Source: a virus
Lineage: Duplodnaviria > Heunggongvirae > Uroviricota > Caudoviricetes
Virus record (IMG/VR): IMGVR_UViG_2671180631_000001
Length of the DNA stretch: 7,580 bases
Direction: 5' to 3' (one strand)
This document shows positions 1-7,580 of the stretch, one piece after another (the first letter of the stretch is position 1; the number at the start of each line of letters is the position of its first letter). A program made the translations under genes and the position numbers. The notes under the pieces are model-generated. The model made no database searches and was not told where the DNA came from. It saw nothing but the letters and a program-made list of their open reading frames with translations.

Positions 1-34
1 CTCCAATGACTAGTCTAAAAACTAGTATTAAGAC

Positions 35-54
35 TATCACTTATTTAAGTGATA
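35..54. repeat. Perfect 9-bp inverted repeat TATCACTTA-tt-TAAGTGATA (operator-like 20-bp dyad) in AT-rich sequence upstream of the endolysin
   Basis: Read directly: 35-43 tatcactta, 44-45 tt, 46-54 taagtgata; the right arm is the exact reverse complement of the left arm. The existence of the repeat is certain, its function is unknown. Confidence 0.6.
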
Positions 55-108
55 CTGGTTGTCTGGAGATTCAGGGGGCCAGTCTAGTAAGGCTGCGAGA
101 GGTGAATA

Positions 109-500
109 ATGTCGCCATCATTACGCAAGGCTGTTGCAGTTGCTATTGGTGGCGGGGCTGTTGCTATAGCATCTGTGTTAATCACTGGCCCAGGTGGTAA
201 CGATGGTCTGGAAGGTGTCAGCTACATACTATACAAAGATATCATTGGTGTATGGACTGTATGTCACGGACACACCGGAAAAGACATCATGCCTGGTAAA
301 ACGTATACCGAAGCAGAATGCAAAGCTCTCCTGAATAAAGACCTTGCCACTGTCGCCAGACAAATTAACCCGTACATCAAAGTCGATATACCGGAAACAA
401 CGCGCGGCGCTCTTTACTCGTTCGTTTACAACGTGGGCGCTGGCAATTTCAGAACATCGACGCTTCTTCGCAAAATAAACCAGGGCTATATCAAAGGCGC
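109..500 (+). CDS. SAR endolysin (phage lysozyme, P21 R-like), 3' end lost in the N-gap
   Basis: ATG at 109 in a TAATG stop/start overlap. N-terminal Gly/Ala-rich weakly hydrophobic segment ([18 protein letters not shown]) typical of a signal-arrest-release domain, followed by a T4-lysozyme-like catalytic region (GLEGVSY...[16 protein letters not shown]). The frame runs straight into the N run at 501, so about 35 C-terminal codons are missing if the full length is ~165 aa as in P21 R. Confidence 0.9.
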
Positions 501-551
501 NNNNNNNNNNNNNNNNNNNNNNNNNNNNNNNNNNNNNNNNNNNNNNNNNNN
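501..551. other. Assembly gap or masked segment (51 N)
   Basis: Uninterrupted run of n at 501-551. Flanking gene content shows the true missing length is much larger than 51 bp (see findings). Confidence 0.95.
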
Positions 552-734
552 AAATGCCCTGTGCCATCCTCAGCCGAAACCTCCAGCGCCTCCGGCATGG
601 GCAATGATGCCACCGTCGAACTCTCTCCAGTTGCTGGACGAAACGTTCTCGGTATCCGGGACGGAATCATCAGCGACCAGACAGCATTGAGAATGCTTCA
701 GGAGTACATCAGGATCCAATGCCTTGGGGGGTAG
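552..734 (+). CDS. Rz-like i-spanin, C-terminal 60 codons only (5' part lies in the gap)
   Basis: The frame starting at 552 translates to KCPVPSSAETSSASGMGNDATVELSPVAGRNVLGIRDGIISDQTALRMLQEYIRIQCLGG, ending at TAG 732-734. This matches the pattern of the lambda Rz C-terminus as I recall it (…ASGVDNAASPRLADTAERDYFTLRERLITMQKQLEGTQKYINEQCR), including the penultimate conserved Cys. Confidence 0.8.
   Translation, partial: KCPVPSSAETSSASGMGNDATVELSPVAGRNVLGIRDGIISDQTALRMLQEYIRIQCLGG
553..690 (+). CDS. Rz1-like o-spanin (proline-rich lipoprotein), 3' part, embedded in the +1 frame of Rz
   Basis: The frame starting at 553 gives NALCHPQPKPPAPPAWAMMPPSNSLQLLDETFSVSGTESSATRQH, ending at TGA 688-690. 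CxxxPKPPAPPAW matches the lambda Rz1 core (QCVKPPPPPAW). It lies wholly inside the Rz frame, the classic embedded-spanin architecture. Start codon and lipobox are in the gap. Confidence 0.8.
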   Translation, partial: NALCHPQPKPPAPPAWAMMPPSNSLQLLDETFSVSGTESSATRQH

Positions 735-822
735 CGGTAATTTTACTCATTATCCTTCAAATCAGATTCTGTTGTCAGAGGAATGGGGGAAGCTGGATTC
801 GCAAGAGCTTTTTATGGGCAGT

Positions 823-1335
823 TTAGCTAAAAAAAGGCAACACGAAGCTAAAACTACCAACATAAAGTGCTGACCAGCTAGCAGCTGAAATCAGACTCAC
901 TGTATACACTTTCACTGGATGAAGTTGCAACATTCCTGCCACCAAAGGAGCAATATAACGCAGCACGGCGATAAAGCGCGAAGTGAAAAGTATTGACACA
1001 GAGTTATTTTGCAACTGAAGGCGAACCCGTTCTATTGTATTGGAACGGCTTGATATTATACATGCAAGTTGAGGGATATGCCCAATTATTATACCAAGAT
1101 GGTAATTAACGATAGTACCGCACCATGCGCCACTCATGACCGTGATTCCAGCTTCCCATGGTGAAAGAGTCGTCTTGCTGACTGTAATTACAGTGGCCAT
1201 CATAATTGATGCTGGTGGCAATATCGCCGAAATGAGTAAAGTGGATTTTGTGAACGCTATTATAAAAAGAAGCCCCCATAGGCGATATGGATGAAGTACA
1301 AAATAGTTCATCAAAGCATTTATCCACTCCATCAA
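823..1335 (-). CDS. DedA/YqaA-like (COG1238-type) polytopic inner-membrane protein; AT-rich cargo (moron) gene
   Basis: 170-codon minus-strand ORF with stop TAA (reverse complement of 823-825). TTG at 1335 is immediately followed by ATG at 1332, with AAGGAAAG 7-10 nt upstream. The product is hydrophobic with a YqaA-like pattern (ILPPAS...SPWEAGI...GAWCGTIVNYHLGIIIG...). Sampled 60-nt blocks are about 35-45% GC against about 55% in the phage structural genes. Family assignment is from recalled similarity, not a search. Confidence 0.6.
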   Translation of the reverse strand: MMEWINALMNYFVLHPYRLWGLLFIIAFTKSTLLISAILPPASIMMATVITVSKTTLSPWEAGITVMSGAWCGTIVNYHLGIIIGHIPQLACIISSRSNTIERVRLQLQNNSVSILFTSRFIAVLRYIAPLVAGMLQLHPVKVYTVSLISAASWSALYVGSFSFVLPFFS

Positions 1336-1529
1336 TGTCTTTCCTTCTGTGAATTTTTCTTTGCTATTTAACCGTGATACGACTTAATTTAGGCTTAAAC
1401 ACCTTACATTTACAAGGTACTCCTGTGGGGGGCCCTGCCACGGAGCGTCGCAGGAGTGAGTGATGAGGAAGAATTAAAGCAACCTATTGTGACAGGCAGC
1501 GATAACAGTAAATCACAGGAAGCATAATC

Positions 1530-2294
1530 ATGGCAAAACCGGACTGGGAGGCCATCGAATCGGCATACCGGGCCGGAGTCCTTAGCCTCCGTGATATAGG
1601 CGAGAAATACGGCGTTACAGAAGGGGCTATCAGGAAGAGGGCCAAAAAGCTTGGTTGGGCACGCAGTGGCGGTACGCAGGTTTGCAAAAATGGTACGCAA
1701 AAAAGGAAAGTGCGTACCAGCAGAAAGCCTGCCATTACTGGCCTTACACAAAAAAGTACGCAACTAAAAACAGAATCTACACCGGATACGAAACCGATAC
1801 GCGGAATGCGTACCGATCCCCCGACTAACCCATTCCAACCCGGTAACCAGCAGGCATTAAAACACGGTGGTTATGCCCGTCGCCTTCTGCTCAAAGATGA
1901 GGTGATAGAGGACGCTAAAGCGTTGACGCTCGAGGACGAATTATTTCGCCTTCGTGCTAACAACCTTGTCGCTGCAGAGAATATTGGTCGGTGGTTGGTG
2001 TCGCTGGAAGATGCTAATGGGGACCAGGAAAGGAAGATGCTGATTGAAAATATCAGCGCCGCCGAGAAAGCAATGATGCGCAATACAGTTCGTATTGAGT
2101 CCATCGTTGGCACGCTTGCGACGGTAGGAAAAATATTTGCTGATACAGCCTACCGCAAGGCCGCCACTGATAAGGTGTCTCTGGAGGCTGATCGTCTTCG
2201 CCGTGATGCAGGTATTGATGATGGCAATGGAGAGCGTGACCTCAATGACTTCTACTCTGACATCCAAACCGACGCTGAATCCGGCTTTACGTAG
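1530..2294 (+). CDS. Terminase small subunit (TerS) with N-terminal helix-turn-helix
   Basis: ATG at 1530 with AGGA 9 nt upstream; 254 codons; stop TAG 2292-2294. N-terminal HTH-like segment (SLRDIGEKYGVTEGAIRKRAKKLGW) followed by a basic/Thr-rich linker. Lies immediately upstream of the large terminase subunit. Confidence 0.8.
   Translation: MAKPDWEAIESAYRAGVLSLRDIGEKYGVTEGAIRKRAKKLGWARSGGTQVCKNGTQKRKVRTSRKPAITGLTQKSTQLKTESTPDTKPIRGMRTDPPTNPFQPGNQQALKHGGYARRLLLKDEVIEDAKALTLEDELFRLRANNLVAAENIGRWLVSLEDANGDQERKMLIENISAAEKAMMRNTVRIESIVGTLATVGKIFADTAYRKAATDKVSLEADRLRRDAGIDDGNGERDLNDFYSDIQTDAESGFT
1671..1814. repeat. Cluster of five GGTACGCA / TGCGTACC copies with flanking A-tracts inside terS (candidate pac or TerS recognition site)
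   Basis: GGTACGCA at 1671-1678 and 1692-1699; reverse complement TGCGTACC at 1711-1718 and 1807-1814; GTACGCA at 1756-1762. A5-6 tracts at 1686-1690, 1699-1704, 1750-1755 and 1766-1770. Copies in both orientations argue for a DNA-level rather than peptide-level constraint. Confidence 0.5.
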
Positions 2295-3648
2295 TTTCTG
2301 GACTATGCGGGCACGTAACAAAGTGCTTTATGGTGGTCGGTCATCGTCAAAATCATGGGATGCCGCTGGCATTGCCATATTTCTGTCGAATAAATACACC
2401 CTGCGTTTTTGTTGTGCCCGTCAGATCCAGAATAAAATCGAAGAGTCGGTGTATACCCTGCTCAAAATTCAGATAGACAGGTTTGGTCTGCGGCACCGTT
2501 TCCGTATTCTGAACAACAAAATCATTAACCGGGTTACTGGCTCGGAATTTGTTTTTTATGGATTATGGCGCAACATCGAAGAAATTAAGTCACTGGAGGG
2601 GATCGATGTGTTGTGGCTGGAAGAAGCCCACGCACTGACGGAATACCAGTGGAAAATTCTGGAGCCAACGATCCGTAAAGAGGGTTCGGAATGCTGGTTC
2701 ATATTCAACCCCGGACTTGTTACTGATTTCGTCTGGCGCAACTTCGTTGTTGATCCGCCCGAAGGCACTCTCATCCGCAAAATTAACTATGACGAAAATC
2801 CGTTTCTGTCTGACACCATGCTTAAGGTTATCGACGCGGCGCGACGCCGTGATCCGGATGGTTTTAAACATGTGTATGAGGGCGTTCCGGAGTCTGATGA
2901 TGATGCGGCAATCATCAAACTGTCTTGGATAGAAGCCGCAGTGGATGCGCACAAAACGTTAAATTTCGAACCCAGTGGAAGAAAGCGTATTGGCTTTGAC
3001 GTGGCTGACAGTGGTACAGATAAGTGCGCTAACGTTTACCGTCACGGATCCGTTGTTTTCTGGGCCGACGAATGGAAGGCCAAAGAAGATGAATTACTGA
3101 AGAGCTGCCAGCGTACTTATCAGGCGGCGCTGGAGCGTGAAGCAGATATTGTTTACGACTCTATCGGTGTTGGTGCGTCTGCCGGTGCTAAATTCTCTGA
3201 AATTAACGCTGACCGGAAGAGCGAGAACGCATACGCGCGACGTGTGAATTACCAGAGGTTTAACGCCGGTGCTGGTGTGCATGAGCCAGATGACGAGTAC
3301 AACGGCATCCCCAACAAAGACTTTTTCGCAAATCTTAAGGCTCAGGCATGGTGGCTGGTGGCTGACCGTTTCAGAAATACGTTTAACGCCATTAACAACG
3401 GAGAACAGTATCCTGTGGATGAGCTGATCAGCATAGATTCTCGTTGTCCGTTGCTTGAAAAGCTGAAACTGGAACTGACAACACCTCATCGTGATTTCGA
3501 CCGTAACGGACGTGTGATGGTCGAAAGTAAAAAAGACCTCGCAAAACGCGAGATACCGTCACCAAACGTTGCTGATGCATTCATTATGGCCTTCGCGCCA
3601 ATCGATACATCGCTGGATATCTGGGAACAGCTGGGGAGACAGGCCTGA
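2245..3648 (+). CDS. Terminase large subunit (TerL), PBSX-type ATPase plus nuclease
   Basis: Open frame from 2137 to TGA 3646-3648. Walker A-like YGGRSSSKS, Walker B-like IDVLWLEEAH, and C-terminal nuclease acidic motifs (FDVADSG, IVYDSIG, NVADAFIMA). The start is ambiguous: ATG 2245 (GGAGAG 10 nt upstream, overlaps the terS 3' end) is chosen here; alternatives are ATG 2218/2221/2227 or ATG 2305 (11 nt after the terS stop, no clear SD). Confidence 0.9.
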   Translation: MTSTLTSKPTLNPALRSFWTMRARNKVLYGGRSSSKSWDAAGIAIFLSNKYTLRFCCARQIQNKIEESVYTLLKIQIDRFGLRHRFRILNNKIINRVTGSEFVFYGLWRNIEEIKSLEGIDVLWLEEAHALTEYQWKILEPTIRKEGSECWFIFNPGLVTDFVWRNFVVDPPEGTLIRKINYDENPFLSDTMLKVIDAARRRDPDGFKHVYEGVPESDDDAAIIKLSWIEAAVDAHKTLNFEPSGRKRIGFDVADSGTDKCANVYRHGSVVFWADEWKAKEDELLKSCQRTYQAALEREADIVYDSIGVGASAGAKFSEINADRKSENAYARRVNYQRFNAGAGVHEPDDEYNGIPNKDFFANLKAQAWWLVADRFRNTFNAINNGEQYPVDELISIDSRCPLLEKLKLELTTPHRDFDRNGRVMVESKKDLAKREIPSPNVADAFIMAFAPIDTSLDIWEQLGRQA

Positions 3649-5114
3649 TGGCACGAAACAAACAAGCCCTGCGGCGAACTGTGCAGGCCACAGCTGATGG
3701 TTATGAGAATTTTATTGCCCGCGTAGGGATGCAGACACCTAACCAGCACTCAGCATCCACCTACCGGGCTAATTTCACCAGTCGTAACCGCATGCTGGTG
3801 GAATGGTCCTATCGTTCATCCTAGATCATCGGCGAAGCAGTCGATGCTATCCCGGATGATATGACCCGCAAAGGCATTCGCATCACTTCGGAAATTGATG
3901 CAAAAGATCGTGGCATTCTCGAATCACAACTGGATGAGTTGCAAATCTGGGATGCGCTGAATGACGTGCTGAAATGGTCGCGCCTCTACGGCGGCGCGGT
4001 GGGTTTCATCATGATTGAGGGGTAGGCACCAATGACCCCGCTGCGACCCGAAACCATCGGTAAGGGCAAGTTTAAGGGGATTCTCCCGCTCGACCGCTGG
4101 ATGGTCGACCCGGCACTGACCCGCCGCATTAAAGATATGGGGCCGGACCTGGGTAAACCTGAGTTTTACGATGTGGTGACCACAGCAACGGGAATTCCTG
4201 CCTGGCGCATTCATCACAGTCGCCTGATTCGCTTTGATGGCGTCACGTTGCCATTTCAGCAGAAGATGACCGAGAACGAATGGGGAATGTCGGTTGTAGA
4301 GCGTATCTGGGATCGTCTTACCGCGTTCGACAGCGCTACTGTCGGCGCGGCGCAGCTGGTCTACAAGGCGCATTTGCGTACCTACAGCGTGGAGAAGCTA
4401 CGCGAGCTTATCGCACTTGGTGGTCCTGCGTATGAAGCGTTGCTGAAGAATATCGACCTGATTCGACAGTTCCAGAGTAATGAAGGCATGACGCTCATGG
4501 ACTCGCGGGATAAGTTTGAAACCCATCAGTACAGCTTCAGTGGTCTGGATGACATCCTTTCGCAGTTTGTAGAACAGATTAGTGGCGCTGTTGGTATCCC
4601 ACTGGTGCGGTTGTTCGGACAGTCCCCGAAAGGATTTTCTACCGGTGATGCAGACCTTGCCAACTATTACGATCGCATCAGTTCGTTGCAGGAGAGGCGT
4701 TTACGTCTTCCGGTGCGGCGGATACTGGACATCATGCATCGTTCGGAACTTGGCAAGCCGCTGCCGGACGATTTCACGTTTGAGTTTAACCCGCTCTGGC
4801 AAATGTCTGATGTCGATCGCTCAACGGTGGCGTTAAACACCACCAACGCAATCAGTACGGCGCTGGGTGATGGTCTGATGACACTGAAAGCCGCTATGAC
4901 TGATTTGCGAGAAAATTCTGACGTAACCGGCATCGGGGCATCCATTACCGACGAGGACATCGAGAATGCCGAAGATGAAGCGCCGCCCGGCATCGGCGAA
5001 CCTGATGACGAACCGCAGGAGCCGTCAGGCGGAAATCCGGTATCGAACCAGCCTACGCAGGATAGCGAGGGCGGTCGGAGACATCGTAAATGGTCGCTAC
5101 GATGGTTCAAATGA
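3648..5114 (+). pseudogene. Portal protein gene interrupted by two in-frame TAG codons (3822-3824 and 4023-4025); longest intact segment is 4032-5114
   Basis: ATG 3648 overlaps the TerL stop (TGATG). One frame runs 489 codons to TGA 5112-5114 except for TAG at codons 59 and 126. The translation across both stops reads as one protein (…NRMLVEWSYRSS*IIGEAVDAIPDDMTRKGIRI…GGAVGFIMIEG*APMTPLRPETIGKGKFKGILPLDRWMVDP…), with an acidic C-terminal tail typical of portals. Confidence 0.8.
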
Positions 5115-5748
5115 CAGTATCACGGAAATTATTGCGGCGCTGGAGCGTTACAGTGAAATCATCACCCCCTGGGCGACAAAGGTCGCGGAAAACTTTACTG
5201 CGGACCTAACCCGGCAGAACGAGAAAGTTTGGCGGCAACACAGCAAGAACATCAGTCGCGAGCTCCGCAATCTTGTGGAAAGCGCTCCTGTGGGCCAGGT
5301 GATGCAATCCATCATCGCCGAACAGGTCAAGTACATCAAATCTCTGCCTCTCGAGGCCGCAGACAGGGTGTACGACATCCAGAACAAAGCGATAGAGGCT
5401 GTTGTCACCGGTGGTCGGGCGGAGCAGTTTGCTAAAGAGATTGCATCTACCGGCGATGTTGCTAAGTCTAGGGCCGATCTGATTGCCCGAACGGAACTGG
5501 GAAGAGCAACGGGCGCGCTGGATATGGCCCGAGCGATAGCTATTGGCTCGGATGGTTATATTTGGCGTACAGCCGATGATGGCGATGTCCGAGATTCCCA
5601 CGATCACATGAAAGGTAAATTCGTCCGCTGGGATTCACCTCCAACTTTGGACGGCATGACCGGCCACGCGGGCGAGCTGCCAAACTGCCGCTGCTATAAA
5701 GAGATCGTGTTTGTTCGCGTTCCATTCGCAATGAAAAGGGCAGCATAA
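4966..5748 (+). CDS. Head morphogenesis protein, Mu F / SPP1 gp7-like minor head protein
   Basis: ATG 4966 with GAGGA 8 nt upstream; 260 codons; stop TAA 5746-5748. Conserved Mu-F-type motif YIWRTADDGDVRDSHDHMKGKFVRWDSPP. The 5' end overlaps the portal 3' end by 149 nt in another frame. Confidence 0.85.
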   Translation: MPKMKRRPASANLMTNRRSRQAEIRYRTSLRRIARAVGDIVNGRYDGSNDSITEIIAALERYSEIITPWATKVAENFTADLTRQNEKVWRQHSKNISRELRNLVESAPVGQVMQSIIAEQVKYIKSLPLEAADRVYDIQNKAIEAVVTGGRAEQFAKEIASTGDVAKSRADLIARTELGRATGALDMARAIAIGSDGYIWRTADDGDVRDSHDHMKGKFVRWDSPPTLDGMTGHAGELPNCRCYKEIVFVRVPFAMKRAA

Positions 5749-5751
5749 CCC

Positions 5752-6972
5752 ATGAAATACTTTTTTGAGACCAGGCTCGGGGAAACCCGATACCGCCTGG
5801 CTGACGGCTCGTTGCTGTGCAAAGACGTGCCGATAGGACGAACAGGTAAGCAGCTCTATGGTGCTGATGACCTGCCAAAACTGAAACCCGATAAGTTCGG
5901 TGAAATAGTCGTCACGCGTTCTCCTGAGCAGGTATTCCATCCGGCCACGCTTGCCTCATTCGAAGGGATGAGCATCACGATCCTGCATCCTGAAGATGAA
6001 AACGGGAATGTGCGGCTGGTAAATCCCGAGAACTGGAAAGAGCTTGCTGTCGGGCACCTCCAGAATGTCCGGCGCGGGACGGGTGAGCAGTCTGATTTGA
6101 TGCTGGCTGACCTTATCGTCAAAGACGAAAGCGCCATTCAGCTTATCGAAGATGGCCTGCGCGAAGTGTCGTGCGGCTATGACGCGGAGTACGAGCAGAC
6201 CGAGCCAGGTAAAGCCGAGCAGGTCGATATTACCGGAAACCATGTGGCTCTTGTCCCTAAAGGCAGAGCCGGAAATCGTTGTGCAATTGGAGACAGAGAC
6301 ACAATGGCAAATCAAAAGAAAAACTGGTGGAACCGCATGCGTGCGGCCATCAAGACAGGAGATGCCGACACCATGAACGAACTGGTGGAGTCGGCTCCCG
6401 CATCGGTTACAGGAGATGAGGGGGATTTGCCGCAGGGCGTTAATCTCAACATCAACCTGTCCCCGCAGCAACCACTACCGGACAAAGCACCAGAGATGGG
6501 CGGAGATCCAACCGGCGACAGTGATGATGACCTCAAAACATTACTGAAAGCCCTGCTGGCTAAGCTGGAAAGAAATGCCACGGGCGATAACGATAATAAG
6601 CCTGACGATAATCCGACCGGTGACGGCGAGGACGATGAAGAGGAAACCACGATTACTGGTGACTCAGCCTGGCGTGCCGAAGTTATCGTTCCGGGTATCG
6701 ATCTGAGCCGTAAGATGAAACCGACCGCGTTCAAACGCGAGGTTCTGGCTTCTGCTGACAAAACGCTGGTTCGCCAGATAGTCGGTGATGCGGATATCCG
6801 CAAATTACCGAAACAATCGGTCGACATGGCGTTTAATGCCGTGTCTGAGGTTGCCAAAGGGCGAAACACCCGCGCCACCACCGGCGATGCACAGCGCCTA
6901 AACATGGGCATGACCAGTATCGCTTCCCTGAACAAACAAAACGCTGAATTCTGGGCAAACCGTAAAGGGTAA
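5752..6972 (+). CDS. Head scaffolding / prohead-maturation-like protein (conserved N-terminal domain, possibly DUF2213-type, plus acidic low-complexity C-terminal half)
   Basis: ATG 5752, 3 nt after the previous stop; 406 codons; stop TAA 6970-6972. N-terminal about 180 aa globular, with HP...GH...SCGYDAEYE...GNHVALVPKGRAGNRCAIGD. C-terminal half is D/E/G/T-rich with repeated TGD motifs, typical of scaffolding proteins. Position between the Mu-F-like gene and the downstream head genes fits. Family name is from memory. Confidence 0.65.
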   Translation: MKYFFETRLGETRYRLADGSLLCKDVPIGRTGKQLYGADDLPKLKPDKFGEIVVTRSPEQVFHPATLASFEGMSITILHPEDENGNVRLVNPENWKELAVGHLQNVRRGTGEQSDLMLADLIVKDESAIQLIEDGLREVSCGYDAEYEQTEPGKAEQVDITGNHVALVPKGRAGNRCAIGDRDTMANQKKNWWNRMRAAIKTGDADTMNELVESAPASVTGDEGDLPQGVNLNINLSPQQPLPDKAPEMGGDPTGDSDDDLKTLLKALLAKLERNATGDNDNKPDDNPTGDGEDDEEETTITGDSAWRAEVIVPGIDLSRKMKPTAFKREVLASADKTLVRQIVGDADIRKLPKQSVDMAFNAVSEVAKGRNTRATTGDAQRLNMGMTSIASLNKQNAEFWANRKG

Positions 6973-6975
6973 AAA

Positions 6976-7482
6976 ATGAATAATGTATTTCTGTACCGGA
7001 TGCCTGTTGGCATTGCCGGGGCTGTCTCTCGCCCGCAGGACTTAACCGTCGAACCGGTGGTCCTTAAATCCGATAACGCCTTCGCTGCCTATGGCCTGGC
7101 TGGTAAATACGATGATGACGGTTTTTTCGTGCCGCTGGCAGATGGTGATACCGCAGACAAGGTGAAGGGGATCTACGTGCGCCCTTATCCGACCACGTCG
7201 CAGCCGGACATGGTTCGCCAGGTGGGAACAGGCAAGAACTTCCCGGGCGACGCCATGAAGCGTGGCTACGTGACCGTTAATCTCGGTTCTGATTTTGATG
7301 CCAGCACTATCAAAAAAGGCGATCCGGTATACGTTGTCGTCTCCACTGATGAATCCATCAAAGTGCCGCTGGGTGGATTCATGTCCACGTCAGTCAGTGG
7401 CAAAAACGTGGTGCTGACCAACGCTGAATTCACAGGTGCCGGTGATGCTGACGGCAATGCAGAAATTTCCTGGAAGATTTAA
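6976..7482 (+). CDS. Head-module protein of unknown function (possible capsid accessory or decoration protein)
   Basis: ATG 6976 with AAGGG 7 nt upstream, 3 nt after the previous stop; 168 codons; stop TAA 7480-7482. Same strand and tight spacing as the morphogenesis operon. No motif recognised with confidence. Confidence 0.55.
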   Translation: MNNVFLYRMPVGIAGAVSRPQDLTVEPVVLKSDNAFAAYGLAGKYDDDGFFVPLADGDTADKVKGIYVRPYPTTSQPDMVRQVGTGKNFPGDAMKRGYVTVNLGSDFDASTIKKGDPVYVVVSTDESIKVPLGGFMSTSVSGKNVVLTNAEFTGAGDADGNAEISWKI

Positions 7483-7497
7483 GGAACAGACGAATGA

Positions 7498-7520
7498 GGT
7501 GATGCTGCCAACTTACTGAT
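7498..7520 (+). repeat. IS1 left terminal inverted repeat (IRL)
   Basis: GGTGATGCTGCCAACTTACTGAT read at 7498-7520, matching the IS1 terminus as I recall it. Confidence 0.85.
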
Positions 7521-7552
7521 TTAGTGTATGATGGTGTTTTTGAGGTGCTCCA

Positions 7553-7580
7553 GTGGCTTCTGTTTCTATCAGCTGTCCCT
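7553..7580 (+). CDS. insA: IS1 InsA (transposition regulator), 5' partial, truncated by the window end
   Basis: GTG 7553 followed by GCT TCT GTT TCT ATC AGC TGT CCC, giving (M)ASVSISCP, the known InsA N-terminus. Confidence 0.85.

Follow-up and report, generated by a model that had tools for sequence, protein, structure and literature searches.

IS1 elements of the IS1A/IS1B type, which occur in Escherichia coli and Shigella, normally yield target-site duplications of 8–9 bp upon insertion. Adjacent deletion by intramolecular replicative transposition is classic IS1 behaviour, and classic IS1 deletions are known from the gal region of E. coli. In IS1 adjacent deletions and in the IS-associated deletion events of the LTEE, a single IS without a duplication is left between collinear flanks and the intervening DNA is gone; the missing duplication is a recognised signature of adjacent deletions or of IS–IS recombination (PMC11708052). 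In all Shigella species, IS1 and IS2 are among the five expanded ISs, and IS-linked pseudogenes and deletions are typical (Hawkey et al. 2020, PMC7373316). On the phage side, the order of the head module analysed here is shared, at 80–99.9% identity, by a group of temperate myoviruses and prophages comprising Salmonella phage SEN34 (genus Brunovirus), the Escherichia phages vB_EcoM-689R2 and 606R2 and the ipaHb-carrying prophage located between ybhA and pgl in FDAARGOS_944.

The window, i.e. the whole stretch of 7,580 nt from IMG/VR record IMGVR_UViG_2671180631_000001, differs from these SEN34-like phages and prophages in that everything from the second codon of the capsid gene onwards is lacking, an IS2 is present in the holin gene, and the portal gene contains two amber codons. 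The IS1 end at position 7498 very probably forms the left border of a complete element of 768 bp, whose position marks the deletion of 19,075 bp from a degraded SEN34-like prophage of Shigella sonnei. As part of this reading, and with the same high confidence, the window covers the surviving segment of that prophage between ybhA and pgl, from the lysis genes to the head cement gene.

The junction between the head module and IS1

Over positions 1–500 and 552–7580, junction included, the window matches five complete chromosomes with 100% identity. Two of the five are confirmed as S. sonnei by name, namely 53G (HE616528.1, lineage II) and 75/02 (CP019689, lineage IIIc) (PMC5447701). The window has the appearance of a draft-assembly scaffold of S. 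sonnei that is delimited by repeats, with an IS end at either side; because the scaffold stops in repeat sequence, no more than 83 nt of IS1 can be seen. A further contig (L006) likewise ends 83 nt into IS1, and its mismatch to the window upstream of position 552 is due only to the N gap. A mechanically called ORF (109–690) was discarded as an artefact that spans the N run. The features of the window are compiled in Table 1.

Table 1. Features of the 7,580-nt window, with L012 denoting the S. sonnei 53G locus
Feature	Position	Strand	Basis or counterpart
Terminal 86 nt of IS2, in the prophage holin gene	1..86	-	Window position 1 = L012 2687; IS2 = L012 1442-2772
51 N, scaffold gap standing for 390 bp of lysozyme/Rz genes	501..551	.	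S. sonnei 53G, L012 3187-3576
Portal gene (PF06381/DUF1073) with two amber codons	3648..5114	+	Codon comparison with the intact FDAARGOS_944 gene
Head cement/minor capsid gene, 168 aa, last intact head gene before the breakpoint	6976..7482	+	PF23982, 4.4e-30; PF22758, 2.8e-21
Spacer and RBS (AAGGA) of the former major capsid gene	7483..7493	+	Identical in uninterrupted 689R2 and SEN34, 5' of the capsid CDS
ATGA, sole remnant of the major capsid gene	7494..7497	+	Alignment; similarity to intact relatives ends at 7497
Left end of IS1, truncated by the window/scaffold end	7498..7580	+	83/83 identical to IS1A/IS1B copies

The last phage-derived bases of the window are …AAGATT-TAA-GGAACAGACGA-ATG-A, followed by the IS1 end GGTGATGCTGCCAACTTACTGAT…. 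A preceding sequence-only reading had described a TAA stop codon at 7480–7482, a ribosome-binding site and an ATG at 7494–7496, and had pointed out that with the IS1 end attached the capsid start now reads ATG-AGG-TGA; all of this is found in the sequence. In both 689R2 (L001 4095–5036) and SEN34 (L002 4093–5034), a 942-nt CDS is annotated to start at the codon aligned with this ATG. In a three-way alignment, the window, 689R2 and SEN34 are identical up to …GACGAATGA; thereafter the window continues as IS1 and both phages continue as TTACTTTTGATCAGG…. Position 7497 is the last base similar to the uninterrupted relatives 689R2, SEN34 and the FDAARGOS_944 prophage. Among the phage records, the similarity to 689R2/606R2 (98.5%), Citrobacter phage Omnitron and Salmonella phage SEN34 stops at this same base, and matches to IS1 begin at the next one.

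The assignment of the last 83 nt to IS1, which had been proposed for verification by BLAST, was verified at full identity (83/83, E = 5e-35) with annotated IS1 copies in 4,963 of the 5,426 complete E. coli genomes. The canonical left inverted repeat (GGTGATGCTGCCAACTTACTGAT, approximately 23 bp, 7498–7520) lies on the very end of the element, the GTG start codon of insA is located at 7553, and nine insA codons lie inside the window. S. sonnei 53G carries the whole element of 768 bp (L012 10523–11290, insA at 10578), and the right inverted repeat …AAGTTGGAGTCATTACC closes the 768-bp IS1 in the S. sonnei chromosomes that are 100% identical to the window. The A6C motif for −1 frameshifting (TTAAAAAACTC) is located at IS1 nucleotide 305, and the insA/insB' products of L010 and L012 matched PF03811, PF12759 and PF03400 (InsA zinc ribbon, HTH_Tnp_IS1 and DDE_Tnp_IS1). 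In left repeat, first 83 nt, length, insA/insB' organisation, A6C motif and domains, the element agrees with the IS1A/IS1B-type IS1 of E. coli and Shigella.

The 36-nt left junction was found in four IMG/VR contigs, and no copy was detected in GTDB representative genomes or in metagenome contigs. A search of complete E. coli genomes at ≥80% coverage gave 0 places. Exact matches of the 168-aa cement protein led to the complete chromosomes bearing the junction, which is identical in all five (L009, L010, L012, L015 and L017). The left junction is thus confirmed as a genuine IS1 end junction and is neither a chance match nor a one-off chimera, because the same 36 nt recur in the four contigs and the five chromosomes. 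The earlier argument that a junction on the terminal IS nucleotide reflects a real event rather than a chimeric join is upheld by this recurrence; the similarity break lies at 7497/7498.

The gene whose start adjoins IS1 is the major capsid gene, as had been suspected. This assignment is supported by the SEN34 annotation of the CDS at the aligned ATG as 'major head protein' and by the intact FDAARGOS_944 orthologue (L008 27747–28688, 313 aa), which matched PF09950 (Major_capside, the DUF2184 phage major capsid family) with 294.7 bits and E = 6.8e-88; the match is that of the intact orthologue, the window keeping only the first four bases of the gene. The upstream synteny of head genes on which the suspicion was based also holds, with the order large terminase, DUF1073/PF06381 portal, Mu-F, DUF2213 and cement protein, followed in intact relatives by the PF09950 capsid gene.

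The far side of IS1 and the missing prophage segment

In five of five complete chromosomes, IS1 is bordered on the right by AACAGGGGG…, which shortly precedes a truncated DNA-invertase remnant and the chromosomal pgl. The left junction, IS1 and the right junction are all common to these chromosomes. In S. sonnei 53G the element is followed by AACAGGGGGATTTACC-ATGCTTATTGGCTATGTACGC…, where AACAGGGGGATTTACC precedes the ATG of the invertase remnant, and pgl comes next. The remnant comprises 43 codons of a serine DNA invertase; its match to PF00239 is weak (20.9 bits versus a curated cut-off of 23.3), and FDAARGOS_944 annotates it as an incomplete DNA invertase. The 9-nt sequences flanking IS1 on the left (GACGAATGA) and on the right (AACAGGGGG) are unrelated, so there is no target-site duplication in any of the five genomes. 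In this respect the copy at the junction differs from a typical IS1 insertion with its flanking 8–9 bp duplication.

The extent of the missing DNA was determined by BLAST against the intact prophage of FDAARGOS_944 (L008, NZ_CP065613.1), which is located between ybhA and pgl. This reference is a different strain, 99.8–99.9% identical over the shared segment. Positions 2773–10522 of L012 correspond to L008 20001–27750, and positions 11291–12215 correspond to L008 46826–47750. IS1 thus replaces L008 27751–46825, that is 19,075 bp of prophage. According to the FDAARGOS_944 annotation, the missing segment contains all of the capsid gene except the initial four bases, the head–tail connector/neck, sheath/tube, tape-measure, baseplate and tail-fibre genes, and ipaHb. 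The capsid gene is deleted and not merely interrupted.

The gene ipaHb (L008 44525–46351) lies at the right end of the intact prophage, within the missing 19 kb, and codes for a 609-aa E3-ligase effector of the type III secretion system (T3SS). The 609-aa ipaHb is class 5/ipaH2610 in the nomenclature of PMC9046306. An assignment of the lost effector as ipaH0722 was rejected in favour of this one, given the annotation as ipaHb and the length of 609 aa. FDAARGOS_944, which contains the most intact copy of the prophage found, is filed as Escherichia coli and has ipaHb annotated in its prophage; the presence of this gene suggests Shigella or EIEC. The sister record FDAARGOS_943 (NZ_CP065615.1) contains the same head module at 99.8% identity, with an IS2 within the matched span.

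A second, inverted IS1 of 768 bp (L012 13888–14655) was observed 2.6 kb to the right, between a LysR-family regulator gene downstream of pgl and an aconitase-family gene. Its flanks, AATACCCTG and CAAAAAAGG, show no recognisable target-site duplication. Shared flanks, which would point to an inversion between the junction IS1 and this neighbouring copy, were not found.

Formation of the deletion and competing explanations

A single complete IS1 without a duplication is thus found between flanks collinear with the intact prophage copy, in which 19 kb separate them. The missing duplication has no bearing on the identity of IS1; it means that deletion or recombination followed insertion. We infer either insertion at one endpoint with adjacent deletion, or recombination of two IS1 copies. 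For the former, IS1 would first have inserted at one of the two endpoints, and intramolecular replicative transposition would then have removed the intervening DNA as an IS1 adjacent deletion, a course to which we assign about even chances. A plausible route that we rate somewhat below even is recombination between IS1 copies present in direct orientation at the two endpoints, with one hybrid copy as the product. The locus shares the single IS, the missing duplication, the collinear flanks and the loss of the intervening DNA with the described IS1 adjacent deletions and LTEE events, and differs from them in that no precursor state was found. Of the two predicted precursor junctions, neither was detected. 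One of them, the sequence upstream of the invertase followed by a duplication and the IS1 left end, had no match in complete E. coli genomes or in IMG/VR; the other is the one expected from insertion into the capsid gene, dealt with below.

The far side of IS1 is not the same in every record. An IMG/VR contig (L004, UViG_2671180338_000008, positions 1–3132) has the identical left junction and an IS1 that is identical at 768 of 768 positions, and its right flank, CACATGCTGGTC…, matches L007 from position 6000. Beyond IS1 it contains the 3' part of a hypothetical ORF, which in E. coli G1/2 is located immediately downstream of sigA; further IS elements come next in the contig. The far side of IS1 therefore differs between strains or assemblies, and L004 is either a strain-specific IS1–IS1 rearrangement or an assembly join across a repeat. 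The source of the window could accordingly have its IS1 joined to an unrelated, SHI-1-like locus of this kind downstream of sigA, brought about by later IS1–IS1 recombination such as an inversion, and high rearrangement rates are reported for Shigella (PMC8072062). We consider this unlikely: the pgl-side flank is present in five of five complete chromosomes, L004 may itself be an assembly join over the 768-bp repeat, and the window is silent past nucleotide 83 of IS1. For the window itself, whose sequence stops at that nucleotide, the pgl-side flank is most likely because it is seen in all five finished genomes.

Improbable, too, is that the insertion and the 19-kb loss occurred as one event without a duplication, or that loss of the structural module and ipaHb was selected during the emergence of S. 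sonnei and was not neutral decay. For other ISs, landing in or creating a break accompanied by a large deletion has been hypothesised (PMC11708052).

The sequence-only reading had interpreted the window end as a simple insertion of IS1 into the second codon of the capsid gene, with a complete IS1, an 8–9 bp duplication and the capsid ORF and remaining prophage resuming behind it. Consistent with such an event, the junction lies exactly on the terminal nucleotide of IS1 and the element normally makes duplications of this size. The complete element does exist beyond the window, as the 768 bp in S. sonnei 53G demonstrate. The duplication and the resumed capsid ORF do not, an outcome that the sequence-only reading had itself named as its refutation: behind IS1, the five complete genomes that are identical to the window have the invertase remnant and pgl, and 19,075 bp are missing. 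A simple insertion would have produced the IS1 right end …CATTACC-GACGAATGA-TTACTTTTGATC, or GACGAATGA (or ACGAATGA) followed by TTACTTTTGATCAGG… where the capsid ORF resumes. No IS1 right end followed by an 8–10 bp duplication and capsid sequence was found in the 5,426 E. coli genomes, IMG/VR, the metagenome contigs or the GTDB representatives. The S. sonnei-type right junction had no match in IMG/VR. How a simple insertion looks in the same locus can be seen from IS2, which serves as an internal control: it lies near the 3' end of the holin gene and is accompanied by a 5-bp duplication, GTAAG (L008 20001–20005). As a description of the present locus, simple insertion is therefore very improbable, though it may well have been the first step in its history. 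In general, a simple insertion should not be concluded from an IS end at the edge of a contig, since IS-rich genomes commonly show missing duplications and large adjacent deletions.

A mis-assembly or a chimeric construct joining the IS1 end to phage sequence, conceivable for a draft scaffold that contains an N gap and is bounded by repeats at either end, can be practically dismissed in view of the identical junction in five independently finished chromosomes and four IMG/VR contigs and its position on the exact IS1 terminus.

State of the prophage remnant and its meaning

In addition to the 19,075-bp deletion marked by IS1, the remnant has suffered damage within the segment that is left. Codon comparison of the portal gene identified W59* (TGG>TAG at 3822–3824) and Q126* (CAG>TAG at 4023–4025). 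Both amber codons are common to the five junction-bearing chromosomes (5/5) and absent from FDAARGOS_944. As predicted from its genes, the remnant is a dead, defective cryptic prophage because structural genes are deleted, IS2 resides in the holin gene and the portal gene contains two ambers. On the minus strand (823–1335), flanked by the lysis cassette on one side and the terminase genes on the other, lies a gene for a DedA/VTT-domain membrane protein that resembles moron-type prophage cargo.

The defective prophage is common to S. sonnei lineage II (53G) and lineage III (75/02). Its occurrence in both suggests that the remnant was fixed before the two lineages split. The IS1/IS2 pattern at the prophage locus fits the IS-driven decay described for Shigella (PMC7373316); unlike the present locus, that account does not concern prophages by name (0 occurrences of the word 'prophage'). 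No description of the IS1–capsid junction was found in the literature searched. Gene calls in published complete S. sonnei genomes already label the IS1 transposase.

The locus is a case of ordinary IS-driven prophage decay; element and phenomenon alike are well known, and published complete S. sonnei genomes already contain the locus. Beyond correct annotation the finding matters little. Lacking the capsid and tail genes and with its portal gene broken, the prophage would be unable to form particles, and viral-contig catalogues that list the locus, such as IMG/VR, thus contain a defective remnant. The fixed junction could act as an S. sonnei lineage marker.
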